DNA of 64,000 nt from Eledone cirrhosa (taxonomy: Eukaryota), in contig OZ024742.1 in the NCBI GenBank assembly GCA_964016885.1, positions 325,934,001-325,998,000 on the forward strand. The letters are read 5' to 3'. Under the pieces are notes generated by a model. It did no database searches and was not told the DNA's origin. It saw only the letters and a program-made list of their open reading frames with translations. This document shows, in pieces, positions 1,000 through 45,693 of this stretch. Every line of letters begins with the position of its first letter. Within the stretch, counting starts at the first letter, position 1. The position numbers and the translations under genes were made by a program.

Positions 1000-2995
1000 G
1001 ATTTCATTTATTGGCCACAAGGGCCGACATATAGGGGACAATACAAAAGACTGGGACAGTGGGGTTTTACAGAAAAATCGAGTAAACAATATGAATAACA
1101 ATAACAAAGTAACAATAACAAAGTAACAATAAAGTAACAAGAAAATTACAAGAAAAAATTCGCCATGAGGGGGGATGACCACCTAGGGTTCACTCAGGTA
1201 CCCCACCAGTCTTGAACGACCCGACGATTCAAGAGCACATTGAAAGGGCACCCCTCTCCTCTTCAAATTTACCTACCTACAGCCGCATGACCAGAGTAGG
1301 CCCACTCACACGGGCCATTCTCGCCACATTCACCCACCTTTCAGCAAATGTACTGGGGGGGGGCAGCACTTCTCTCTCCACCCTCACCTTCCTTCCCAAG
1401 TGAAACTTGAAAAAGTTGATGCGGGATTGGCCGAAGAGAAAAGTGTCTGTCTTCAGTCCTTTCAACCTCGTCCACCATACAGCCTCTTTCGTTACTGCCA
1501 CCAGACACAGGAAAATTGCCCGCCCTTCCTGGCCACAAGAAGGCGGCGGGTCGATCTTCACTATGGACTCGGCCGATAGCCGCATCCGTTCTACACTCGA
1601 CAACAGCTGTTCAACATAACTCCACAAGTCAGTAAATCACGGACACTGGACGAGTGCGTGCAGAACGATTTCGTCGCTCTGCGCGCATCTCGGGCAGGTC
1701 CGTCTGACAGCACTTCCGTGCCTGTAGAGTTTATCTCGAACCGGCAGTGCCCCCCGGTAGCACTGCCAAGCGAGGGATTTTTGGAAATTATCCATCGTCC
1801 CCGGTACAGACTGGTTAGTTCGACTTCGTTGACTCCCAGAGCCTCTCCGAGTGCGTCGTCGCACTTGCCCACCACTAATGCTCTATAGAACTCGAGAGTG
1901 GAAGATCCACTGACCGCATTGCCCGCCTGGTAGAGGGCAGTGAGTGCCTGGAAACATTCCAGATGCCAGTCACCCAGTCTCGGTCTCTTCTTGACCCAGG
2001 ACTGCAACTCAGTCAAAGAAACGAGCTGCGGAAAGGCCCGTCTGACAAACGGCGACCACACCTGGTCACCGTTTAGGCAGAATATCTGGAAATGCCCAGC
2101 CCTCTACGTAGACGGTGCTAGCAGCAGATGGAACGCCTCACCAGCGGAAGCTGACCCTTCCACAAGAATTTGAAGAGGAGCCGCTCTAAGATGGCGAGGC
2201 GCAAACGGGGGCAAGGGACGACAGTCAGACGGTAGTAGATGACGGACGCGATGTACGCGTTCGCCACATCCGCCCGACCTTTCAGTGATAGCTTCATCCC
2301 AGCCCATTTATGGGTGAGACTGACTACTCTGCCCGTCACCTCGTCCCAATTCTTATCCACCTGGAGATCTGGCCCGAACCAAAACCCTAGCAACTTTACC
2401 GGTCCGTCCGTCCAGCGCCAAACGACGCTGTTGGACGGCATGGACTTGTCTCTTCGGGTGCCGAGTTGAAAGCCCACTGACTTTTCCGGGTTAAGTTTTG
2501 CTCCCGTCAACCTTTCATATTCCTCCAATAAGTTGCCGACCACCTCGATTTGTGAGGTGTCCGACACCATCACGGTGATGTCGTCCGCATAAGCCGACAC
2601 AGCCTTTCCGCGTCCCGGTTCGAGCGGGATGCACTGCAACAGCTCCAGCTTCCGCAGTAAAGGCTCGAGAGTCAATACGTACAGAAGGGAGGAGAGATGG
2701 CACCCTTGACGGGCCGATCGGGAGACCTGACACGGTTCCGAGAGGTGTCCATTAATTTTGACCATATAGCAGGTGCCGCTGTGCATTGCAGCGATCCAGC
2801 TTCTGAAGACGGGGCCGAAGCCAGCCGCCTTGATGACAGCCTCCAGGTACCGATGGTCGACCCTATTGAATGCTTTTGATTGATCTAAATTGATCTGAGC
2901 CCCACCGAAGCCAGGTTTACACCATACCCTCTCTATGATGTATCGCATTAGGTGGAGGTAGTCGTGTATAGACCTGGTTGTGATTGCGCAAGATT
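1000..2995 (-). mobile_element. 5'-truncated Tx1/L1-clade LINE (RT plus zf-RVT region plus 3' UTR), frameshifted
   Basis: ORF 2118-2948 has LDQSKAFNRVDH, RQGCHLSSLLY and AYADDITV; downstream frames give RGALPVRDKL..CPRC..HALVQC (zf-RVT); 3' end AATAAATGAAATC. Confidence 0.9.
2118..2948 (-). pseudogene. Reverse transcriptase fragment of Tx1/L1-clade LINE
   Basis: Non-LTR RT motifs KAF, QG and YADD in the ORF track. Confidence 0.9.
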
Positions 2996-3091
2996 GAAAT
3001 ATTTAACAACAAGAAATAATTAACAACAAATAATTTTAACAGGCAAATAAAGCGACTTACTGTCAGCGAGCAAAATACGTCCGCTTAGACC

Positions 3092-3123
<32 letters not shown>

Positions 3124-3226
3124 TAATAATATTGCTGCTGCTACTATTATTGAAGACAATAACAACAAAAACACCAACAACAAAATCAACTTACTTAAAC
3201 CATAGCAATAACAACAACAATAATAA

Positions 3227-3550
3227 TTGTTTCTACTTTTGGCACAAGGCCAGAATTTAAACCAGTGCATTACTGGTACTTTATTTTATCGACTCTGTAA
3301 GTATGAAATGCAAAGTTAAACAGGGCGTGATTATGCTAATTCAAAAACAACAACAATAATAATAGCTGCTGATATAGGCACAAGGCCAGCAATTATAGGA
3401 AGGGACTAGATTAAATGAAATCCAGCGTGAGACTGGTACTTTATTTCATAGAAATTGTAAAGATGAAAGGTAACGCTAAACAATTAGAAGCTAAACGACC
3501 GTAACTCTATGGCACGAAGCAGGGTGTCCTACGCTCTACCGATTCTGCTA
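3227..3550 (-). mobile_element. Two degenerate/partial family S SINE copies
   Basis: GGCACAAGGCCAG..ACTGGTACTTTATTT..GATGAAA motifs at about 3227-3325 and 3376-3550. Confidence 0.75.
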
Positions 3551-3574
3551 ATTTAAAAACAATAATAATAATAA

Positions 3575-4925
3575 TGGTTTCATTTATTGACCACAAGGTC
3601 CGACATATAGGCGACAATACAAAGACAGACAGCGGGTTTTTACAATAAATTCGAGTAAAAATACACAATGACAAAAAAATTAATAGTAAAATTATAGGAA
3701 ATATATAAACAAAAAACGCTAAAAATATATAAAAATATAACAAAATAAATTCCCCAATAGGGGCAGGCGAAACACCCAGGGGCACCTCAGGTACCCCACC
3801 AATCCTGTACCACCCTACGTTTCGAGGGAACCAGGGAGGGGCACACGTCTCCTCCTCAAATTAACCAGCTTACAGGTGCATGCTCAGAGTAGGAAAATTA
3901 ACACGGGCCATTCTCGCCACATTCACCCACATTTTAGCAAATGTACTGGGGGCAATACTTCTCTCTCCAGCCTCAACCGCTTTCAGTTCTTTCACCCTGC
4001 ACCACCGCACAATCTGTTTTACTACTGTTTCCAGACAGAGGAAAACTGCCTGTCCTTACATGCCAAAACTAAAAAGCGACGGGGTGATCTTCACTGTGGA
4101 CTTGGTCGACCCGGATCCGTCCTACAGACGACTCCAGCTGTTCGATATAACTCCAGAAGTGTGTAATGCACGGACACTGGATGAGTGCTTGCAGAACTGT
4201 TTCGTCGCTCTGCGTGCATCACGGGCATGTTCGTCTGACAGCACTTCTGTGCCTGCACAGTTTCTCCCAAACCGGCAGTGCCCCCCCCCCCCCTTGTAGC
4301 ACTGACAAGTGACGCCGCCCAGAACCTTTCCGACTGCATCCTCCCAACTAACCAACCAGTAATACTCTATGGAACCCGAGAGCGGAGGTTCCAGTGACCG
4401 CATTGCTCGCGTAGTAGAGGGCAGTGAGCGCCTGGCATAATTGTAGATGCCAGGCACCGAGTCTCGATCTCGTCTTGACCCAGGACTCTAACTCATTGAA
4501 AGAGACGAGCTGCGGAAAGGCCTGTCTCACAAATGTTGACCACACCTGTTCACCGTTTAGCCAGAAAAACTGTAGCTGCCGCAGCATAAGCGCGTGTTTA
4601 AGCGTCATGAGCCACGAGATGGCCAGCCCTCTTCATAGAGGGTGCTGGCAGCTGATGGACCGCCTCACTTGCGGAAGCTGTCTCCTCAACAAGAAGTTGA
4701 AGACGAGCTGCTCCAATTTGGCGAGGCGCGAACGGAGATGGCACGACACTTTTGTGGTAGTAGATGACGGAGGGGATGTATGAATTCACAATCTCCATCC
4801 GACTTCTCAGAGACAGCTTCCTCTCGGCTCATTTCTGGTTGAGAGTGACTACCCTAATCGTGACCTCGTCCTAATTCTTATACAGCTGGAGGTCTGGTCC
4901 AAACCAAACCCCGAGCAACTTTACA
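3575..4925 (-). mobile_element. Second, more truncated Tx1/L1-clade LINE copy
   Basis: Clear homology to 1000-2400 (WSTFVRQAFPQLVSFNELESWVK; same 3' UTR); ends in (ATT)n. Confidence 0.88.
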
Positions 4926-5693: not shown

Positions 5694-6461
5694 ATTAGAA
5701 ATTAGAAATTATAATCTTTCACCGTATTTTAGACTAAAAAATTTCTAGCCTGATAGTGGGGTTTATAACCTTCGGAGAAATGGAAGAAGATGAGTGTTGC
5801 CGTACACGGGAGTCGAACCCACATCTTTGGTTATCCAGACCCCTGTGCTACCATTACACCAATATACATCCCGTCTCCTTCCATTCGAATTAGAAGCTAT
5901 GAACTTAGCAAGTGAATGATAAACAACCAAATTATAAATGTAAACATGTAAGTATGTTTTTGAAACGGTGCGCGAATTAAAATTAGAAATTAGAAATGTA
6001 CGGCAACACTCATCTTTTTCCATTTCTCCGAGGGTTATAAACCCCACTATCAGGCTAGAAATGTCTTTAGGCTAAAATACGGTGAAAGCTTATAATTTCT
6101 AATTTCTAATTTTCAAACTCGCGCACCGTTTCAAAAACATACTTACATGTTTACATTTATAATTTGCTTGTTTATCATTCACTTACTAAGTTCATAGCTT
6201 CTAATTCGAATGGAAGGAGACGGGGTGTGTATTGGTGTAATGGTAGCACAGTGGTCTGGATAACCAAAGATGTGGGTTCGACTCCCATGTACGGCAACAC
6301 TCATTTTTTTCATTTCTCCGAGGGTTATAAACCCCACTATCAGGCTAGAAATTTCTTTAGTCTAAAATACGGTGAAAGCTTATAATTTCTAATTTCTAAT
6401 TTCAAACTCGCACACCGTTTCAAAAACATACTTACATGTTTACATTTATAATTTGCTTGTT

Positions 6462-7090: not shown

Positions 7091-7093
<3 letters not shown>

Positions 7094-7435
7094 ATGAAAT
7101 CGAAAATGCAACTGGAGTCTTATTTTAAAAAGAATATATATATTTATTTGGTTCCTTCACCGGTTTCGCAGTTCTTCTGCTTTTCAAAAGTAGAGTTGAG
7201 ATGGAGGGTCTGTGGTTTTACTCACATCTGAGAAAAAAAACAGACCCTCCATCTCAACTCTACTTTTGAAAAGCAGAAGAACTGCGAAACCGGTGAAGGA
7301 ACCAAATAAATATATATATTCTTTTTAAAATAAGACTCCAGTTGCATTTTCGATTTCATCTTTTTTTTTTAATACTTTCACTCGTGTAGGACACCTCGGT
7401 TATTTTTCATTTTGTAAAAAAACCCTCACTTTCTA
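7091..7435 (+). mobile_element. Fold-back PLE-type element, family P1 (about 140-bp inverted arms) with HHR variant
   Basis: 7091-7225 is the reverse complement of 7238-7365; TTGAAAA-GCAG.AAGAA.CTGC-GAAAC-CG-GT motif; second copy at 30127-30488. Confidence 0.85.
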
Positions 7436-7447
7436 ATATATATATAT

Positions 7448-7540
<93 letters not shown>

Positions 7541-8128: not shown

Positions 8129-8199
<71 letters not shown>

Positions 8200-8200
<1 letters not shown>

Positions 8201-8619
8201 TAAAAGGAAAATAAAATGCTGACAAATTGTTCCCAGTGAAAAATAGTTTAATTAGGAATAAGTAAAAATTAGTAATGAGTATTGGTTAGTATTCAGTTTT
8301 AGTTTTAAGTTTTTATCGGTTGCGCATCTCTAATGCTTTTCAAAAATAATTTTGAGATAGAACGCCCGTGATGTTTGCTCTAATCTGATTAGTTTTGGAG
8401 ATTCTACCAGTTTTATGTGACAAAAGTGGCTCCAGAGGTATTAAAATAAGTTTCTGGCCAATTCGTGTTGCTAAAATTCTTGTGGTCAAAACAATTTTGA
8501 TTGGTCGGTAGAGGTCACGTGAATGTTAAAAATTGATTTTGCGCCAAATGTAGGTTTGTCGAAGAGTGTCCTTTTTCGCCTGATTGAGAAGTTACTGAAA
8601 AATAAGTCTTTTAAGACAA

Positions 8620-8691
<72 letters not shown>

Positions 8692-10220
8692 CAGAGTAAT
8701 TCGTGGTAGAGGGATCGGTCAGTAGGAATGTGTCTGTACGTGTGGAGGGGGATATTTTAACATGTTGAAAGATATATTTCAGCTGTTGTCTTATACGGAG
8801 AATTGTATGTGTGTCTGTGTGTGTATGTCTCTTTGTATGTTAGAGTACACGTGTGTATTTGTGTGTGTCTATATGTGTGTGTGTGTATATATGTGTGTGT
8901 GTGTGTGTATGTGTGTGTGTGGACCGTATTTTTGTGATACTGGTAAAAATGGTGTACATTATTCGATATTTTCAGCGAAAACGATTCTCTCAAGAGAACA
9001 TCAAAAACATAATAATAAAAGGTGTGAAATAATAAAAGGTGTGAAACATAATAATAAAAGGTGTGAAATGATATATAGTATTGTCATAACACCAAGGTGT
9101 GTGTAAGTGTCCAGATTGTACGTACTGCAAGGGGAATCCATTAGGCCCTGCCGTATTGGAATACTTGTGTACAAATATGTATGTGCCCATCTGTGTGCAA
9201 TGCATTTGTGCGTATATGTATGTGTGTGTGTCGGTACGTTTATATCTATAGACATCAAAAGGTATGCACATTTGTGTATATTTGTGTTGCACCATAGAAC
9301 ATGTGTGTTTACGTATGTCATTGTGTTTATATGTGGATAGAGATGTATGTAGGATGTATTCTGATGTAGGTATGTATGTTGACGTGTAAATGTTGTGGGT
9401 TCGTCTTAGGGAGAAGTGTTTAGACGGGGTCCGTATTTTTTAATAAATGAGATTCCTTGCTGATGCGCTGGGTGTGGGTGGCATTATCTTTAAATTTGTA
9501 GAGGGGAAAGATTCTAAAGTTGGGATGATTTTGCGCGGCACAGGTATCAATGTGTTCACTTAGTGGTATTTTCCTGTATTCCCGTATTTTAATTTGGGAT
9601 TTATGGACAGTCATGCGTTGGCGGAGGCTTATTTTAGTCTGGCCTATGTATTGTTCTCGACAACCTGAGCAAGTTAATACATATATTAGATTTTTTTATG
9701 CGCATGTGAAATTGTGTTTTACAATAAAACGTTGTCCTTCTTTGAAATAGAATTCCGAACCCTCTATTAGGTTGATGCATATGCCACAGTTAGGTCTATC
9801 GCATTTTTTTACTGTGGGTTTCGTTGTTGTGGTTAGCAGTAATTTGGCATGTGTTAGGATGTTTTTCATTGACTTAGATTTTCTTTTGCTCTTTATGATA
9901 TCGTGTGTTCGAAGAATTTGGTTCATTCTACGGTCCTTTTTCAACACAGGGATGTTCTGGAGGATGGTGTCAAAGGCCTCATTGTTGAGGGGGTTGTGTG
10001 TGGAGATGTATGGAAGGGTTTTTAGTTTCGGTTGATTTACTTTAGGGTGTCTAAGGTGCTGGGTACTGAGTTTAGGGCACATTGGATTCCATTGTCAATT
10101 AGTGATGCAGGGTAGTCCCTGCCTAAGAGTGAGTCCTTTAGTTCTTGTAGCCGTAATAACAGGTGTTTTTTTATTGGAGACTATAGTACAGATTCTCTTG
10201 GCTAAGTTGTAGGGAATATT
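8200..10220 (-). mobile_element. 5'-truncated Penelope-like element: RT C-terminal end, Zn-linker, GIY-YIG endonuclease, long 3' region
   Basis: Minus frames: NIPYNLAKRICTIV, CDRPNCGIC, FTCA*KNLIYVLTCSGCREQYIGQT..LRQRMTVHKSQI..LSEHIDTC..KESHL; decayed HHR-like TTGAAAA-GCAT..ATGC-GCAAC at about 8312-8345; 3' end in (TA)n. Confidence 0.88.
9420..10082 (-). pseudogene. PLE GIY-YIG endonuclease region, disrupted
   Basis: ORFs 9696-10082 and 9420-9614 flank the NLIY..YIGQT motif. Confidence 0.85.
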
Positions 10221-10465
10221 AAATTTCATTTCCCACTCTTAGTACGGCTGTTACTTAAATATAAGTATGTACACGTACATACATATATGTATACAGACGT
10301 ACAGTACTATGTATATATATATACATACATGCACACATATATATGTACGTATGGATTCACCGAACATTTATTATAAAGCTCGGTGTGTTTGTAAACAAAT
10401 ATCCCGTATTAAGCCGTAGTGTCTAGCAACCATCGTTGCTCGTTTGTTCAACACTGAAAAAGGAA

Positions 10466-10506
10466 CGCTGTACTAGTTTCAAGCTTATTAGCTATCATCA
10501 GCAACG
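10466..10506 (-). ncRNA. Minimal type I hammerhead ribozyme (family R)
   Basis: CGTTG-CTGATGA-T-AGCT.AATA.AGCT-T-GAAAC-TA-GTA-CAGCG. Confidence 0.85.
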
Positions 10507-10885
10507 TATACCTTCCTGCCAGATTGTTGAACGTATATACTTCCCTTATGCATATTGACGGCTGAGTAGCCCAATTTGCATATCGAGTGGGTTAATCGGC
10601 CGGGTGCACCGAAAACGATAAACGGAAAAAATGAAACGAAATTTCATTTCCCACTCTTAGTACGGCTGTTACTTAAATAAAAGTATGTATACGTACATAC
10701 ATATATGTATACAGACGTACAGTAGTATGTATATATATACATACATGCACACATAGATATATATGTACGTATGGATTCACCGAACATTTATTATAATGCT
10801 CGGTGTGTTTGTAAACAAACATCCCGTATTAAGCCGTAGTGTCTAGCAACCATCGTTGCTCGTTTGTTCAACACTGACAAAGGAA

Positions 10886-10927
10886 CGCTGTACTAGTTTC
10901 AAGCTTATTAAGCTATCGTCAGCAACG
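10886..10927 (-). ncRNA. Minimal type I hammerhead ribozyme (family R)
   Basis: Same fold, core CTGACGA. Confidence 0.85.
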
Positions 10928-10962
10928 TATATCGATACAGCAGGCCGATTAACCCACTCAAT

Positions 10963-11010
10963 ATGCAAATTCGGCTACTCAGCCGTTAATATGCATAAGG
11001 TAGGTATATA
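10963..11010 (+). promoter_or_regulatory. Candidate snRNA-type promoter: octamer ATGCAAAT plus TATATA upstream of the HHR
   Basis: ATGCAAAT 10963-10970 (also 10574-10581 and 15397-15404); TATATA 11005-11010, about 28 nt before HHR stem I. Function is inferred. Confidence 0.4.
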
Positions 11011-11037
11011 CGTTCAACAATCTGGCAGGAAGGTATA

Positions 11038-11078
11038 CGTTGCTGACGATAGCTAATAAGCTTGAAACTAGTACAGCG
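11038..11078 (+). ncRNA. Minimal type I hammerhead ribozyme (family R)
   Basis: CGTTG-CTGACGA-TAGCTAATAAGCTT-GAAAC-TA-GTA-CAGCG; predicted cut after 11073. Confidence 0.85.
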
Positions 11079-11218
11079 TTCCTTTGTCAGTGTTGAACAA
11101 ACAAGCAACGATGGTTGCTAGACACTACGGCTTAATACGGGATGTTTGTTTACAAACACACCGAGCATTATAATAAATGTTCGGTGAATCCATACGTAGA
11201 TATATATATGTGTGCATG

Positions 11219-11250
<32 letters not shown>

Positions 11251-11309
11251 CGTCTGTATTCATATATGTATGTACGTGTACATACTTATATATATATAAA
11301 TATTTTTCA

Positions 11310-11886
11310 GACTCGAAACCGATTCGGTAAAGGTAACCATAGTGAGTACAGCGAATTTTTTGAAATTTATTTTGAAACTTTTTCTTATTTGCTAAAACTT
11401 GATTATATATGCTCTGGCTCGTTAATTTATTAACCTGCCATTGAACCACATTGGCATATGTTTGGACAATACATGTGTCCCTAGACGCTTTTTGCGTGTA
11501 GGTGTATATACTTTATTATTATTCTCCTCTTGGTCGAGAAAAGAAATTTGGTCGTTCTGACTGCTGCTAGTTATAGTGGTAGTAGACTGACCTCCCTGCC
11601 TTTGCTTCTATCTTTACACACGGCACTGGACGGAATTGCTTCCACATCATTTATTCTCATCTCGGGAACAATTTTGAATAGCGCCAGTTCGTAATTTGAA
11701 CTCGGGAATTGTATATTCTCCGAGTGAAAAGATCCTTCTGACGAGAGTTTATCTTTGCAATGGTAGGCCGCAAGGACTGTCCATTTATTTTTGAGACTCG
11801 AAACCGATTCGGTAATGGTAACCATAGTGAGTACAGCGAATTTTTTAAAATTTATTTTGAAACTTTTTCTTATTTGCTAAACCTTG

Positions 11887-11890
<4 letters not shown>
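11310..11890 (+). mobile_element. Element with about 95-bp direct terminal repeats (pLTR-like)
   Basis: GACTCGAAACCGATTCGGTA...CTTGATTA at 11310-11405 and 11795-11890; contains HHR 3' half GAAAC-CGATTCG-GTA. Confidence 0.6.
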
Positions 11891-12239: not shown

Positions 12240-13785
12240 AGATATTGTAGTGGGATATAGAGAGGGAGAGAGAATTTGTTAGTCTAGTGAGGGTGGGGAA
12301 ATTAAGAGAGAGTGATGTGTGTAGTACAGAGTGAGGGGAGAGAGTTTGTTTTAGTGAGCGTGGGGGGGGGGGGTGTATTGTTAGAAAGACTGAAGTTTGT
12401 AGTGAGATATAAAGAGGGGGAGTGAATTTGGTGGTCTACTGAGAGAGGGAGATTGTGAGAGCAATTCAGATACGTAGTAGGATAGAGGGAGAAAGAGAGA
12501 GAGGGGGAGAAGGTTTGATGGTTTAATGAGAGACGGGAAATTAAGAGAGAGAGAGGGGGGGGTTAAGAGATTGAGAGAGAGTAATGTAAGAGATTGAGAG
12601 AGAGTGAGGTATGTATATAGAGAGAAGAGAAGAATTTGCTGGCTGAAGGAGAGAGGAAGAATTGTGTGAGAGAGTGAGATATGTAGTAGGATATATAGAG
12701 AGGGAGATTGATTGGGGGTCTAATGAGGGGGAATTGTGAGATAGTGGGGTCTGAAGTGGTATAGAATGAGGGGAAAGAGTTTGTTGATTTAGTGAGACGG
12801 GGAATTATGAGAGAGAGTGATGCATGTATTGAGATAAAGAGAGGGGGAGAGAATTTGATATTCTACTGAGAGAGAGGGAATTGTGAGAGTGAGTAAGGTA
12901 TGAAGTGGGATATAAAGAGCGGGAGAGAGTTTGGTGGTTTAGTGAGAGAGAGGTTATTGTGAGAGTGAGACGGAATGAGGTATTTAGTGGAATATAGAGA
13001 AGGGGAGAGAATGTGTAGGTCTAGTGAGAGAGGGGGATTTAAGAGAGTGGATGAGTGTGAGGTATGTAGTGGAATAGGGAGAGGGTGAACATTGGTTGGT
13101 CTACTGAGAGAGGGGGAATTGTGAGCGAGAGTGAGGTATGTATTGGGATATAGAGAGCAGGAGAGTATTTCTTGGTTCAGTGAGAGGGGGGAATTAAGAG
13201 AGTGAAATAGATTGAGTTATATATTGGAATATAGGGAGGCGGAGTTAATTTGGTGGTTTATTGAGAGAGGGGCAATTGTGAGAAAGAAAGAGAGAGAGAG
13301 TGTGTGTGATATATATAGAAAGCGGGAGAGAATTTGTTGGTTCAGAGAGAGAGAGGAGGAATTAAGTGCGTGGCAGAGAGTGAGAGATGTAGTAGAATAT
13401 TGAGAGGGGTAGAGAATCTTTTGGGCTACTAACAGAGGGGGAATTGTGAGAGACTGTGAGGTATGTAGTGGCTTATAGAGAGGGGTGAGAATTTATCGGT
13501 CTAGTGAGAGAGAGGGAATTATGAGAGGGAAAGTGAGTGAGAGAAAGTGAGGTATGTAGTGGGAAATAGAGAGGGAGAGAGCGTTTGGTGGTATAATGAG
13601 AGAGAGGCAATTGTGAAAGCAATAGAGTGAAGCATGTATTGTTATATAGTGAGGGGGAGAGAGTTTGGTTGGCTAGTGAGAGAGTGAGAATTACGAGAGT
13701 GATAGTGAGTGAGTTATATTCTAGTATATAGAGAGGGGAGATAATTTGGTGATTTAGTGTGAGAGGGGGAATTGTGATAGAGTGT
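12240..13785 (+). repeat. Purine-rich diverged minisatellite, unit about 75 bp, about 20 copies
   Basis: Recurrent GAGGTATGTAGTGGGATATAGAGAGGG..GAATTTGGTGGTCTAGTGAGAGAGGGGAATTGTGAGA. Confidence 0.9.
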
Positions 13786-14484: not shown

Positions 14485-15050
14485 TAGTTCAAAAGGACAA
14501 TGAAACAAACGCAGGAGTCAATTGTACATAGTGGTATTAGGTTCACGCTTGCTGGGAGTGGGGGAGGTTTCCACGTTTCTGACTTGTCTTTCATCAGGAG
14601 TGCGGAGGGAGTAAGGAGAGATGTAAGCAGGGAAGTCAATAAGAAGAACACAAAAGAAAGGAAAAATAAAAATTAAATAAAAACAACATTTAAAAAAAAG
14701 GGAAAACAAATGGGGTGAGGGTTGTACAGGTCCGGGATGTCTAGGGTGTGGTAGTGTGTATAGGGGTGAGTGGAGGGTGTTAGGAGTAGAGAAATGGTGG
14801 GGGAAGCAAGAAAATCAGAGTCCGGGTGGCGATGGTGGGAGGTAAGGTGTGTTTGTATGCGTAGATGTGTGTGTGTGTATGTGTGGATGTCAGTATGAGA
14901 ATTTTCAAGGAAGAGAGTGGATGGGAATGTAGGTTTTGAATAACCATTGTGTATGTGTAGGAGTGGACTACATGTCTGTGCATGTATAGTCCCTGGTTTT
15001 GGTATATATATATATGTTCCTAAATTTGCTGTATAAAACAGTCCCATATG
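14485..15050 (-). mobile_element. PLE-like 3' region with decayed HHR
   Basis: Minus strand CTC-CTGATGA-AA-GAC.AA.GTC-A-GAAAC-GT-GGA at 14570-14600; TA-flanked. Confidence 0.5.
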
Positions 15051-15079
15051 TTTGTGTATATATATATATATATATATAA

Positions 15080-15572
15080 ATATAAGTATGTACACGTACA
15101 TACATATATGTATACATACGTACAGGAGTATGTATATATATATACATACATGCACACATATATATATGTACGTATGGATTCACCAAACATGTATTATAAT
15201 GCTCGGTGTGTTTGTAAACAAACATCCCGTATTAAGCCGTAGTGTCTAGCAACCATCGTTGTTCGTTTGTTCAACAATGACAAAGGAACGCTGTAGTAGT
15301 TTCAAGCTTAGTAGCTATCATCAGCAATGTATACCTTCCTGCCAGATTGTTGAATGTATATACTTACCTTATGCATATTAACGGCTGAGTAGCCCAATTT
15401 GCATATCGAATGGGTTAATCGGCCGGGAGCACCGAAAACGATAAACGGAAAAAATGAAACGAAATTTCATTTCCCACTCTTAGTATATATGTATGTACGT
15501 GTACATACTTATATTTAAGTAACAGCCGTACTAAGAGTGGGAAATGAAATTTCGTTTCATTTTTTCCGTTTA
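15080..15572 (-). mobile_element. Family R retrozyme copy (one unit plus short inverted arm)
   Basis: Near-identical to 10260-10660; HHR at 15289-15329 with mutated stem III; inverted arm about 15490-15572. Confidence 0.88.
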
Positions 15573-15585
15573 TATATATATATAT

Positions 15586-23887: not shown

Positions 23888-24228
23888 ATAATATAAGATC
23901 AAAAGATGGTTAAAGGAGTTCCATGTATTTTATTATGCGCATTTCAAAAACAAACATCATCATGCAATAATATTTGTGTTTTCATCAGATAAAACAGGAG
24001 AACATGATATGAAGGCTAAAAAACACTTGTGGATAGTGCAGTTTTAAATCAACATATCATATGTTGATTTAAAACTGCACTATCCACAAGTGTTTTTTAG
24101 CCTTCATATCATGTTCTCCTGTTTTATCTGATGAAAACACAAATATTATTGCATGATGATGTTTGTTTTTGAAATGCGCATAATAAAATACATGGAACTC
24201 CTTTAACCATCTTTTGATCTTATATTAT
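23888..24228. repeat. Perfect 170-bp-arm palindrome with single-C spacer (24058), PLE-type fold-back
   Basis: 23888-24057 is the reverse complement of 24059-24228. Confidence 0.95.
24122..24188 (+). ncRNA. Type I hammerhead ribozyme (mirror copy on - in left arm)
   Basis: TTTTAT-CTGATGA-AAACA...TGTTTTT-GAAAT-GCGC-ATA-ATAAAA. Confidence 0.75.
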
Positions 24229-25884: not shown

Positions 25885-26180
25885 GCGTTCAACAATTTGG
25901 CAGGATGGTATACGTTGCTGACGATAGCTAATAAACTTGAAACTAGTACAGCGTTCCTTTGTCAGTGTTGAACAAACGAGCAACGATGGTTGCTAGACAC
26001 TACGGCTTGATACGGGATGTTTGTTTACAAACACACCGAGCGTTATAATAAATGTTCAGTAAATCGATACGTACATATATGTATATATATATACATACTA
26101 CTGTACGTATGCATGTATGTATATATATATATACATACTACTGTACGTCTGTATACATATATGTATGTACGTGTACATAC
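25885..26180 (+). mobile_element. Family R retrozyme partial copy, HHR at 25913-25953
   Basis: CGTTG-CTGACGA..GAAAC-TA-GTA-CAGCG; ends in (TA)n. Confidence 0.88.
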
Positions 26181-26190
26181 TTCTATATAT

Positions 26191-30093: not shown

Positions 30094-30130
<37 letters not shown>

Positions 30131-30484
30131 AAAAAGGGATGAAATCGAAAATGCAACTGAAGTCTTATTTTTTTTTAAAATATATATATTTATTTGGTTC
30201 CTTTACCGGTTTCGCAGTTCTTCTGCTTTTCAAAAGGTGAGTTGAGATGGAGGGTCTGTGGTTTTTCTCACATCTCAGATGTGAGAAAAACCACAGACCC
30301 TCCATCTCAACTCACCTTTTGAAATGCAGAAGAACTGCGAAACCGGTAAAGGAACCAAATAAATATATATATTTTAAAAAAAAATAAGACTTCAGTTGCA
30401 TTTTCGATTTCATCCCTTTTTCTTTATACTTCCACTCGTGTAGGACAACTCGGTTATTTTTCATTTTGTAAAAAAAACCTCACT

Positions 30485-30551
<67 letters not shown>

Positions 30552-30713
30552 CATATAGTCTATCAAAGTTCTTGCATGACACACCGGTAACATCCTCAGT
30601 GTTACTATTATGTTTCCTCCTGTTGTATTATAGAAAACCAACCAAAATCAAACAGTGAGTGTGCTTTATCATTCTTCTGGCAATATCATAACAAGGTGGC
30701 CCTCCTCAAATAT

Positions 30714-41510: not shown

Positions 41511-44500
41511 GATGGCTGCCCGCTCGTTATCGAGTATGGCCATTGCACAAGAAAATAAAAAAAAAAATTAAATAAAATAATAATAATAATAATAATAATA
41601 AGTATAATAATAATAATAATAATAAATAAATTTAAAAAAAAAAAAATATATATATATATATATATACATACATACATATATACATACACACATACGTACA
41701 CATACACACACACATATACACACACACGCACGCACATAAGCATATCTACACACACACACACACACGATAGCAACTAACACTGCTGCGATCGAATGTGGCT
41801 TTTTAACCCAGCCAATGATCTAAAATGTCTTGCACAGAGTCGGCAACCAAAACATTCACTGGGAATAGTCGGCTGTGGTTGGAGTTCGTGTACTTTTGAA
41901 TGTCGCTTGAGCCCTCCTGCTGATTTACATTCACTACCACATGTTTGGCAAGCATGATGAGTAGCATCTCCAACGGCAGCCTGGTAGTCAACCACTGGTC
42001 TTACTTTATGACTGCGAAGATGACTTTCGAGTCCAGCTTTGCTTAGGCAGAGTCTCGCACAGACGCTGCATCTCAGCACCATAGGAGGACCCTCGCCGTC
42101 TGGAAGTGCAACAGCAATGCCCTTCCTCACATCTCGCTTTACTTTCTCGTGTGCGATTCGAGATGCCTCAAAGGCAACTTTTCCCTCATATACAGTCTTT
42201 CTCCATTTATTACGATCAGCAGCAATATTTTCCCATGTATCAGCAGAGATGTTAGCGTCTTTCAGAGAGGCTTTCAAGGAATCCTTATACCTCTTTTTTG
42301 GTTTATGTGGCGGTCGTTTTCCTTTAACCAACTCTCCATAAAAGAGTTGTTTTGGTATTCTAGAATCCTTCATCCTGGCAAGGTGACCACTCCAACGGAG
42401 TCGTTGTTTAAGCACAAGAGCTTCTATACTGTCACACATAGAGCTTTCCAAAATCTCGACATCACTGATGTGGTCCCTCCAGTGAACGCCATGGATCCGT
42501 CTGAGACACATCCGATGGAAACGCTCCAATTGCTTAAGGTGGTGTCGATATGTGACCCAGGTCTCGCAGGCATAAAAAAGACAAGAGAGTACACATGCCC
42601 TGTAAACCCTTACCTTTGTCCTCCTGCATATATCTCCCCGACCGCAGAGTCGCCTTTCTAGCTTTCCGAAAGCATCACTTGCTTTCCTAATCCTAAGTGA
42701 GATTTCACTGTCAAGGTTGCTGTATCGATTGACAGTGCTTCCCAGGTAGACAAACTGATCAACCACTCCAAGTCGTTTGCCATACACATAGATGTTTGGT
42801 TCAGTGTACTGCTTACTAGGGGCAGGTTGGTACATGACGACGGTTTTCTTGAGACTGACAGTCAAACCCAGGGCAGTGCAAGCGTCAGAAAGTGCATTCA
42901 AAATGTGCTGCATATCACTCTCTGTGTGCGCTACGAGATCGCAATCATCTGCATACAAGAGGTCTCTTATGATTGATGTAAATACTTTTGTCTTCGCAGC
43001 AAAGCGCCTGATGTTAAATATGCTACCTGAGGTTCGATATCGGATGTAAACACCATGCTCGCAATTCCTGAATGCAATACAGAAAACCATTGCAAAGTAT
43101 ATGGCAAACAGGGTCGGTGCTGGAATATCCCCCTGTTTTACTCCATTTTTTACTGAGATAGGCTCCGACACGTTACCTCCGACATTAACCCAAGCCTTCA
43201 TGTCGTCATGGAAAGACCTAACTAAAGCAAGGAACTTATCAGGGCAACCAAGTTTCTGGAGAACCTTCCATAATGCATCTCTGTTGACAGTATCGAAAGC
43301 CTTTGTCAGATCGACAAAATCCTGATACAGATCCAAGCCTTGTTCAATGCACTTCTCCTGGAGCTGTCTAGCTGAGAAGATCATATCAGTAGTGCCGCGT
43401 CCAGCACGAAAATCAGATTGACTTTCAGGAAGAACACAATCTGCAATGTGTGTCAGCAGACGGTCCAGAAGCACCCTACATAAAACGTTCCCTACTACAG
43501 AAATCAATGATATACCTCTGTAGTTCCCACAATCATTCCTGTTACCCTTTCCCTTGTACAAGACCACCATTACTGCATCTCTCCAGTCCTCAGGTACGGA
43601 TTCATTAGCCCATATCCTTCCAAACAACGAGTGAAGATGTTGCAGGAGTCTCTCACCACCATATTATAGGAGCTCAGCATGTATGCCATCCATACCTGGA
43701 GATCTCCCACTGTTCAGCTTCGAAATAGCCACTGCAACCTCCACAAGCGTCGGAGGTTCTGCGAGAGCTACTTTCACAGGACTTTCTGGAATGAGATTGA
43801 GGAAATCTTCACTGACGACAGACGGCTGATTCAAAAGATCATCAAAGCGCGGCTGCCACCTTCGTAGAATTCCCTGTGAGTCACGAAGAAGTTCTTTGCC
43901 ATCCTTGCTGCGAAGCAGTGTCACCAGAGAAGAAGACGGTCCATAAACCTCACGCAAGAGACTGTACAACAGCTTTGTGTTATTGGAATCAGACGCAGTT
44001 TGTATCTCACCAGCCTTCTCACTCCACCACTGATCATTCATCTGAGAAAGACTCCGCCTAACACGTGATTTTACATCCCTGAGTTCCTCATGCAACGTAT
44101 TCCTCTCCTGTGGTTTTGCCGTCAAGTAGCGTGACAGAGCACGCCTCTTATCAGCCAACAAGTCTTCTATATGTACATCATTCTCATTAAACCAGTCCTG
44201 ATGTTTTCTCTGCACCAATCGCAGAACACGCCTGCCTACATCATAAACCGACTTTTTAAGGGTCGGCCAATGCTCACCAAGATCTGCAGCCTGCATCTCT
44301 TCTTCCAATGTCCTCTTCACATTTTTATCCTTAAGACGAGCAGCATTCAATCTTTTGGGCAGGGTAACACCAGGAGCCCGGATTTTACGTTTGGTGATTA
44401 GTTTCACTTTTGCGCGTACCAGGCGGTGGTCCGTCCAGCACTCAGCTCCACGAAGAACACGAACACACTGCACATCCTGTCTGTCACGCATCTTGACTAG

Positions 44501-45693
44501 GACGTAGTCCAAAAGATGCCATTCCTTTGATGCAGGATGCATCCATGTGGTCTTGAATTTGTTCTTTTATTGGAACATGGTCTTGTTAACACACAGATCC
44601 AGCTCCTCACACATCTGCAGCAGGAGCATACCATTGCTGTTACACTTTCCCACCCCATGCCTTCCGATTACATTCCATGTGTTAAAATCCCTACCCACTC
44701 TAGCATTAAAGTCACCAAGCACGATGACTTTTTCTGCCTGAGGGATATTTCTTAGAACACTTTTCAAGGCATGGTAAAAGGACAGTTTTTCTTCATCGAA
44801 AGAATTCATGGTTGGAGCATACACACTCACCAGTGTAGCATATCTTCCTTTGTCCAGCGGAACTCTCATGGACATAAGACGCTCACTAATCCCTACTGGG
44901 AATTCTTCTAATTTATTCACAAGTACAGTCTTAACAGCAAATCCTACCCCAGCCACTCTTCTGGTTCCTTCATCTCTTCCTTTCCAGAAGAATGTATATT
45001 CTCCACAAAATTCCGTAAGATGACCATCTCCAGCTAACCTCGTCTCAGATAAAGCCACGATGTCAAGATCGTAACGCCGAAGCTCCTTTGCAACAAGAGC
45101 GGTCCTTCGTCCAGGACGCTCCAAGGAATCCCTGTCAAGCAGCGTCCGTACGTTCCAGCAGCCAAGACTAAATGCCCTGTTTGGCTCTATTACAATGGCA
45201 CGATGACGAGCGGGCCCAGGCTGTGATAACTTGGGGCCCCTCCCCTTATTGCCAATGATCTTTTTTGTTCCAGAACCTAAATTGCCAATTATCTCTTTTA
45301 CATTGTTCTGGAACATCATTGAATATAAAAAAAAAAAATTAAAAAAAAAGTAAAAATAATAGTAATAATAATAATAATAATAATAATAGTACACTATTAA
45401 TAATTATTAATGCACTCGTGCAATGCCTGTGGGTCACGAATATTTTTAAAGTGAGGAAAGACTGTGCACTGAGTCAATCCCACTCTCTGAGCGACAGCAG
45501 CTATAACCCGAAAAGAAGAAAAGATCAACATCATCGGTAACTACTGAGCCGCAGGTTTTATATCGGAGTTAACCCAGTTTCTTGAGATGCCTTCTCCTAG
45601 AAGTATGCCCTGACAAGGGCTAGGGGTTCTTCACTCCCAGTGGTTTAACTGCGCGATCGGGCATCCAGCCCGATTATTTCTATGTCCCCGCGC
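41511..45693 (-). mobile_element. Near full-length RTE-clade LINE
   Basis: 5' UTR with CCCCTAGCCCTTGTCAGGGCA..CTAGGAGAAGG; single long reading frame; 3' end TGGCCATACTCGATAACGAGCGGGCAGCCATC plus (ATGT)n. Confidence 0.93.
41774..45319 (-). pseudogene. RTE ORF: APE endonuclease, RT and three C2H2-type fingers; about 1180 codons with two in-frame TAA stops
   Basis: GCWNVRTL, ALSETR, SVYAPT, GDFNARVG, HLLDYV, TDHRLV; NYRGISL, QGD, LYADD, YLGS; three track ORFs share one frame (stops at 44567-69 and 43664-66). Confidence 0.93.

Follow-up and report, generated by a model that had tools for sequence, protein, structure and literature searches.

A high-copy 420-nt hammerhead repeat family with a Penelope-type insertion signature in Eledone cirrhosa

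The unit and its predicted hammerheads in the window

The window analyzed here is a stretch of 64,000 nt from the Eledone cirrhosa genome and belongs to an assembly of 3.0 Gb. Three loci of a repeat unit of 420 nt are found in the window, and the first of these adjoins a fragment of a Penelope-like element (PLE), denoted PLE-A. The features are collected in Table 1.

Table 1. Features of the three repeat loci and of the adjoining PLE fragment (window positions; unit positions are counted from the predicted cut)
Feature	Positions	Strand	Remarks
PLE-A fragment, own 3' repeat ending in (TA)n	8131-8197		
PLE-A fragment with RT thumb, Cys-rich linker, and GIY-YIG	8198..10220	-	5'-truncated, frameshifted; adjoins the unit, separate from it
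3'-terminal partial unit (positions 1-252)	10221..10470	-	clipped before the usual 273 end
Full cut-to-cut 420-nt monomer	10471..10890	-	non-coding, 38% GC
5' partial unit (381-420), upstream half of ribozyme 2	10891..10931	-	
Type I hammerhead 1	10465..10506	-	intact; predicted cut 10471/10470
Type I hammerhead 2	10885..10927	-	core intact, additional U next to stem II; predicted cut 10891/10890
Inverted arm, unit ~279-420 + 1-217	10932..11294	+	stops at the 217 site in (TA)n
Hammerhead 3	11038-11079	+	within the inverted arm
Second locus: minus arm 229-420 + 1-217, plus arm 185-273	15077..15573		both ends (TA)n
Hammerhead 4	within 15077..15573 (second locus)		stem III broken
Third locus, single arm 358-420 + 1-217	25886..26189	+	ends in (TA)n
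Hammerhead 5	within 25886..26189 (third locus)	+	stem II weakened

The five type I hammerhead motifs that a preliminary description had placed at these three loci were recovered using a structural scan together with alignment. Complete type I motifs are reported by the scan with the last base before the predicted cut at 10471 (-), 10891 (-), 11073 (+), and 25948 (+). The GUA cuts at 10471 and 10891 are predicted exactly 420 nt apart, as had been proposed. The motif is made up of a 6-bp stem I, CUGA(C/U)GA, a 4-bp stem II, GAAA, a 2-bp stem III with a 2-nt loop, and GUA. Stem III is the palindrome ACUAGU that was first described, with the A15.1-U16.1 and C15.2-G16.2 pairs enclosing the loop. 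Three of the five hammerheads are intact and two are damaged. The copy with the predicted cut at 15294/15293 (-) aligns with the others, but a change of G16.2 to C disrupts stem III and further changes are present, while stem II is weakened in the copy at 25948. One additional U is found next to stem II of the copy at 10891, the core of which is intact.

The unit is non-coding, as claimed, with a longest stop-free frame of 51 codons. Its GC content is 0.38, and it has no LTR architecture. Head-to-tail repetition is real at the first locus, but the arm comprises only about 1.7 units (381-420, 1-420, and 1-252 across 10931-10221). The inverted arm that had been claimed is present. Dispersed copies, described earlier as near-identical, are likewise present at both of the other loci, but their identity is 92-98%, with one stretch of 85% across a microsatellite.

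The Infernal/Rfam check proposed with the preliminary description was negative, as no hammerhead family reaches its gathering threshold in the window. The sole sub-threshold hammerhead match is HH9 at 10448-10519, which scores 26.7 bits (E = 5.7e-4) where the gathering score is 52. Matches of the miRNA type, also below threshold, were rejected as artefacts of the hairpin and the TA repeat. Relative to shuffled sequences the fold of the monomer has a z of -7.2, to which a TA-rich hairpin contributes part. In the minimum-energy fold of a single ribozyme the stem III strand is mispaired with the core, and two ACUAGU strands are predicted to form a duplex. This folding prediction fits activity as a dimer, as described for hammerheads with a short palindromic helix III (PMC4209133).

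Other repeats were recorded in the window. A second hammerhead-like family, with a period of ~485 nt and a long stem II, lies beside the unit at 11305-11890 (+). Its stem III is CCGAUUCGG, it ends in (TA)n, its ribozyme was read by eye, and related copies occur at the sampled loci L150 and L207. Further hammerhead families at 23934 (-)/24182 (+), 50648 (-), and 7719 (-) recur in sampled loci, and two of them have a palindromic stem III. A possible minimal hammerhead at ~14560-14600 (-) was seen by eye and missed by the scans. The genome appears to hold many hammerhead families. A near-intact LINE broken by two stops, which we take to be RTE-like, a degraded LINE, presumably L1/Tx1-like, a tRNA-like repeat, and a 76-82-nt purine-rich satellite are located at 41774-45403 (-), 1244-4783, 6229-6293, and 12649-13777, respectively.

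Family size, subfamilies, and insertion ends

The genome-wide check of copy number revealed a high-copy family with dispersed copies and tandem arrays. A 26-mer from the ribozyme core has 6,693 exact matches in the genome against 0 for the reversed control, and the family is therefore not a product of chance. A second core variant gave 2,102 exact matches, and a 20-mer just past the cut gave at least 13,531, again with 0 for each reversed control. The first 100 matches of the 26-mer core form 60 clusters within 52 Mb, of which 56 were sampled as 6-kb loci and one more as a long array; two others were in the set already, and one was left out. The sample further includes 20 arrays from among those with the best scores, and, for the second core variant, 17 loci and a long array. 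The left end of one array and 20 loci that differ in their first five bases were added.

In the sampled material, 293 hammerhead motifs were found across 93 loci, with one type I motif per unit, and the unit length ranges from 420 to 430 nt. The description of the family as young holds for the latest lineages and is limited to them because older subfamilies are also included; the family far exceeds the three loci of the window. Stem I is ACGUUG/CAGCGU in 86 loci, ACGGUG/CAUCGU in 8, and ACGUUG/CAUCGU in 2, such that one pair has changed between subfamilies from G-U (8 loci) to U-G (86 loci) by way of U-U (2 loci). The catalytic core is unchanged in subfamilies that have diverged by 10-20%. An older form of the ribozyme has a predicted cut after GUU and an extended palindrome. 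As judged from these sequences, the compensated change in stem I and the constant core provide modest evidence that the ribozyme has been kept under selection. The evidence is modest because most loci were ascertained through the ribozyme, by patterns inside it, which inflates both the apparent conservation and the number of cut-site crossings.

Some further observations concern the unit and its arrays. The octamer ATGCAAAT at unit positions ~310-317 (window ~10574-10581, -) is present in 47 loci and is altered to ATGCATAT in 18 loci, the youngest lineages among them. Newt satellite 2 is said to have an snRNA-type promoter with an octamer. Two old satellites were found, one of 45 full units with a 4-unit higher-order repeat (L166-L168, G000:C1:51.773-51.794 Mb) and one of ~35 mosaic units (L218-L219, G000:C1:53.355-53.371 Mb). 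Contigs from two other organisms contain parts of the unit, including the tandem joint, at low depth, and the family may be present in relatives too.

The insertion ends were first tabulated for the 56 loci taken in coordinate order. Of 97 3' ends, 83 fall at unit positions 207-221 (mode 217) or 264-273 (mode 273) and run nearly always into (TA)n, and the 5' ends are scattered. Over 101 loci, 167 of 196 arms finish at one of these two fixed ends, 217 or 273 nt past the cut and 56 nt apart. The same two ends are in use in older subfamilies. The 101 loci comprise 39 simple two-armed head-to-head loci, 45 single-armed loci, and 17 complex loci. One 217 arm is paired with one 273 arm in 38 of the 39 simple two-armed loci (binomial p = 1.5e-10 against 0.5). 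The second window locus obeys this rule, and the first combines a 217 arm with the arm clipped at 252. A modest excess of 5' ends at unit positions 381-400 (18 of 167 arms) may be an artefact of hairpins at the inversion junctions.

In PLEs, an inverted truncated copy accompanies the element and a tail of 30-40 bp is found at one end only (PMC8557442). This tail is set by two internal start sites of the PLE reverse transcriptase, which extends both target strands (PMC11167929). Comparable pairing was observed for PLE-A, in which a short and a long end ~33 nt apart are combined in 13 of 16 two-armed loci (35 of 39 loci could be classed). The paired ends and the (TA)n of the 420-nt family are the two-start tail signature of PLEs. 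The insertion traits of PLE mobilization are found, namely two alternative 3' ends, an inverted 5'-truncated arm, and a (TA)n target. We hold it very probable that the unit is a non-autonomous hammerhead element mobilized by a PLE. The retrozyme reading of the preliminary description is supported, but the PLE-type insertion signature and the abutting PLE fragment had been overlooked in it.

Read-through of the cut site and uniformity of the arrays

Not one of the 167 arms has a 5' end that coincides with the cut site, the nearest being at positions 5 and 418, in a set taken mostly from loci chosen with a pattern that spans the cut. Genome-wide, positions 1-25 are intact in 8,498 copies, and in 7,810 of these (92%) the 5 bases on the far side of the cut also match exactly, which is about the level that mutation alone would leave by our own estimate. 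On a linear monomer with both ends cut, cDNA synthesis would halt at position 1. This pile-up, the expected mark of a cleaved linear template, is absent from the arms and from the genome-wide count and was rejected, and thus the template was either circular or uncleaved.

Two substitutions private to L206 are present in every unit of both arms (7 full units), and private variants are present in all units of both arms of L068 and in all units of the single-armed loci L059 and L061. A private length variant occurs in 9 of 10 full units of L054, on both arms, and another in 4 of 5 full units of L060. In total, a private substitution or length variant marks all or nearly all units in 6 of 22 young multi-unit loci, and both arms in 3 of the 22. 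Private variants across all units point to one monomer copied repeatedly, as on a circle, and favor that template rather than prove it. The internal distance of the 11 youngest arrays is 0-0.5 substitutions per 325 columns.

In most young arrays the haplotype is one of a small number that recur at other loci (minimum distance 0), so that fixed private variants are a minority. Two of the 22 young multi-unit loci are not uniform: in J051 the arms differ in length and one arm has a C-to-T change in 13 of its 16 units, and in L200 a variant is confined to one arm. An origin of the alternating 420/422 arrays L064 and L065 from dimeric circles was considered and rejected, as the units are mosaic. 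The inverted arm of L064 is free of the arm-wide variants, and L065 and L066 resemble local duplications. Because of the non-uniform J051 and L200, the few shared haplotypes, and the duplication and mosaicism at the DNA level in old or alternating arrays, dimeric circles were dropped and a circle is regarded as the rather probable template of the element and not as a firm one.

The same element and PLE enzyme could instead operate on an uncleaved linear multimer from homogeneous master arrays, with the ribozyme slow or serving another step and with no need for a circle. Read-through across the cut is predicted equally by this alternative, and in the minimum-energy structure of the monomer the 2-bp stem III takes an inactive fold. 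J051, with a block of 13 units that match the haplotype of four other arrays exactly, could have served as the master of these arrays, and ribozyme mutants insert normally in vitro (PMC11167929). The locus-private variants in all units (nearly all in L054) of both arms of L206, L068, and L054 would, however, require a bottleneck of one monomer followed by re-amplification. The compensated change in stem I and the constant core would also argue that cleavage matters. We consider the linear multimer unlikely, and a circular template is carried forward as the preferred reading.

Penelope-like elements and the proposed cycle

PLE-A is a candidate for the type of element that mobilizes the unit. 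The family has many copies with 95-96% identity. Homologues of an intact relative carry RT and GIY-YIG domains, and the relative has a Cys-rich linker of the Neptune/Nematis type, an assignment made by motif (motif from PMC8557442). Those PLE-A homologues that bear a name derive from assemblies of bivalve symbionts, a hint of a mollusc lineage. A Pfam search with a 132-aa PLE linker fragment gave no match. The junction between the unit and PLE-A at 10220/10221 has a 5-nt microhomology and is without the usual 273 end. It more likely arose by a deletion after two separate insertions than by a template switch; the two outer ends that survive are each a short one.

The abutting PLE-A was examined as a parent of the unit and rejected, since its 3' repeat is unrelated to the 420-nt unit. 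DNA similar to the unit is present near PLE-A in 6 of 39 loci and lies outside the element. This enrichment is read as shared (TA)n targeting, for example in L096, where (TA)n lies between the unit and PLE-A.

The preliminary description had named as its alternative that the unit is always simply the pLTR of a coding PLE. This was addressed with five PLE families and the sampled retrozyme loci, none of which bore it out. The PLE loci compared were 39 plus eight more for PLE-A, 30 for PLE-B, one for PLE-C, 20 for PLE-D, and one for PLE-E. Each of the five families has its own 3' end, unrelated to the unit, and four of the five have a different hammerhead-like motif. PLE-B and PLE-C have a hammerhead-like motif with a U3-A8 core and an ACCGGU palindrome, PLE-A has a further altered version that was read by eye, and PLE-D has a different, canonical hammerhead motif. 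The U3-A8 core is a known variant in PLE hammerheads (PMC4209133). RT/EN matches were detected near 11 of 95 retrozyme loci and near 3 of 20 more. On re-examination of these 14 loci, none had the match contiguous with the unit as its 3' repeat, and the matches are separate neighbors. No ORF with RT and GIY-YIG flanked by the 420-nt unit was found among the families and loci examined. No autonomous partner with a homologous terminus was found in the five PLE families, in a genome with a large PLE diversity from which scoring covered only the best candidates. The tail is not significantly similar to the ends of PLE-A or PLE-B (p of 0.03-0.15, uncorrected, in 18 comparisons), nor to that of PLE-C.

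PLE-A and PLE-B match the retrozyme in target and age range. Many intact RT-EN frames of 770-784 aa are present in PLE-B and young PLE-A (L170-L199 and L220-L229), and PLE-B has an additional upstream open frame of ~400 codons. Inverted terminal-repeat fragments of PLE-B are located in the window at 30124-30557 and 7093-7514. The PLE-B copy at 30204 (-) has the U3-A8 hammerhead-like motif with the ACCGGU palindrome, and this motif was found in 31 loci in all.

The unit could still be the terminal repeat of an unsampled coding PLE family, with the loci as its 5'-truncated copies. Its insertions are built like those of PLEs, and in the window a PLE fragment lies directly beside it. The PLE diversity noted above also leaves room for such a family. 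In addition, 24 of 57 Xenopus retrozyme families match known TEs, nearly all of them PLE termini (10.64898/2026.07.22.740005). Against this, no ORF is found in arrays of up to 21 full units, the RT/EN matches are not contiguous with the unit, PLE-A to PLE-E have unrelated 3' ends, and (TA)n keeps the unit and PLE-A apart in L096. This origin is judged highly improbable. The least probable account, disfavored as the main route, is amplification and dispersal at the DNA level with the ribozyme as a relic: duplication and conversion at the DNA level are evident in the two long old arrays (45 full units; ~35 mosaic units) and in the alternating arrays L064-L066, but the two fixed 3' ends, the random 5' ends, the 217/273 pairing, the (TA)n targeting, and thousands of dispersed loci of one to two units would be left unexplained.

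The preferred reading is a non-autonomous retrozyme, the predicted self-cleaving RNA of which is probably circularized and likely reverse-transcribed by a Penelope-like enzyme; on balance we think this reading probable. In the proposed cycle, a tandem locus would be transcribed. The ribozymes would then pair through the ACUAGU palindrome and release monomers of 420 nt, a step suggested by the structure and by known newt/axolotl and PLE ribozymes. A host ligase would close the circle, as may be expected from PMC7229834. A Neptune-like PLE protein with RT and GIY-YIG domains would nick (TA)n on both strands, and cDNA synthesis would start on each strand at its own fixed internal site, the two sites lying 56 nt apart; the ends and their pairing are observed, and the enzyme is a presumed one. 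The cDNA would pass the ligated cut site one or more times to give head-to-head arms of tandem units, for which the read-through is observed and the rolling circle is proposed. Some arrays would later be reshaped at the DNA level. Two published results count against this cycle. The ribozyme was dispensable and unprocessed RNA was the main substrate for a PLE in vitro (PMC11167929), and cleavage was seen in 1 of 9 Xenopus dimers (10.64898/2026.07.22.740005).

From its sequence, the unit has the testable defining features of non-LTR retrozymes and belongs to a large, recently active family that is predicted to self-cleave. Newt satellite 2 and schistosome Sm-alpha are reportedly tandem hammerhead repeats like the unit, and helix III of newt satellite 2 is also said to be too short to work well as a monomer. 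Both are named in PMC7229834. The metazoan non-LTR retrozymes of coral, mussel, and axolotl described there are likewise non-coding, GC-poor tandem repeats in which each unit has a single type I hammerhead, and they range from dimers to long multimers. They too have a strongly self-paired monomer and co-exist with PLEs, and the amphibian retrozymes share the weak palindromic helix III. Their RNAs are 170-400 nt in length and the unit of 420-430 nt is just above this range; expression and cleavage were demonstrated for them (PMC7229834), whereas the present family is known from the genome. The vertebrate non-LTR retrozymes of Li, Clavereau, and Pollet (2026, 10.64898/2026.07.22.740005) are of the same class, with a proposed PLE dependence and with monomers, dimers, and multimers in one family. 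The support given in the accessible text of that study is co-occurrence and pLTR homology, the arrays are discussed as local amplification, and no mollusc is sampled. No homologous pLTR was found here, and the link is instead the two-site tail, the inverted arms, and the (TA)n targets. PLEs themselves have two alternative 3' ends, an inverted 5'-truncated arm, partial tandems, AT-rich or (TA)n targets, and a palindromic minimal helix III (PMC8557442, PMC11167929, PMC4209133). Unlike them, the unit has no ORF, its tail is 56 nt rather than 30-40, and it forms long perfect tandem arrays of a small unit.

The retrozyme class, its mollusc members, and its proposed dependence on PLEs have already been published (PMC7229834, 10.64898/2026.07.22.740005). 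In the accessible text of these two papers, the enzyme that moves animal retrozymes and circles as a real intermediate are proposed without proof, and PLE mobilization and tandem cDNA from circles were put forward without insertion-end evidence by Cervera and de la Pena (2020, PMC7229834), in whose main text the word "inverted" has 0 occurrences. No description of the 420-nt family or of a paired-end signature in retrozymes was found in the literature covered, which lay outside Repbase, Dfam, subscription journals, and bioRxiv supplements. The value of the family lies in the genomic evidence for PLE-driven mobilization, the element class itself not being new. The two-start signature, the lineages of zero divergence, and the many intact PLE ORFs together mean that a decisive assay could draw on a matched RNA with predicted starts, on a target, and on candidate enzymes.

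We tentatively suggest, as a possibility that may well fail, that the PLE reverse transcriptase primes twice, on both target strands, and copies a ribozyme-made circle for up to ~17 rounds, in trans and with no terminal homology. If this is true, the family would be direct genomic evidence that an animal retrozyme is retrotransposed in trans by twin priming on a rolling circle, and, with PLEs that still have intact ORFs, the cycle could be rebuilt in vitro.
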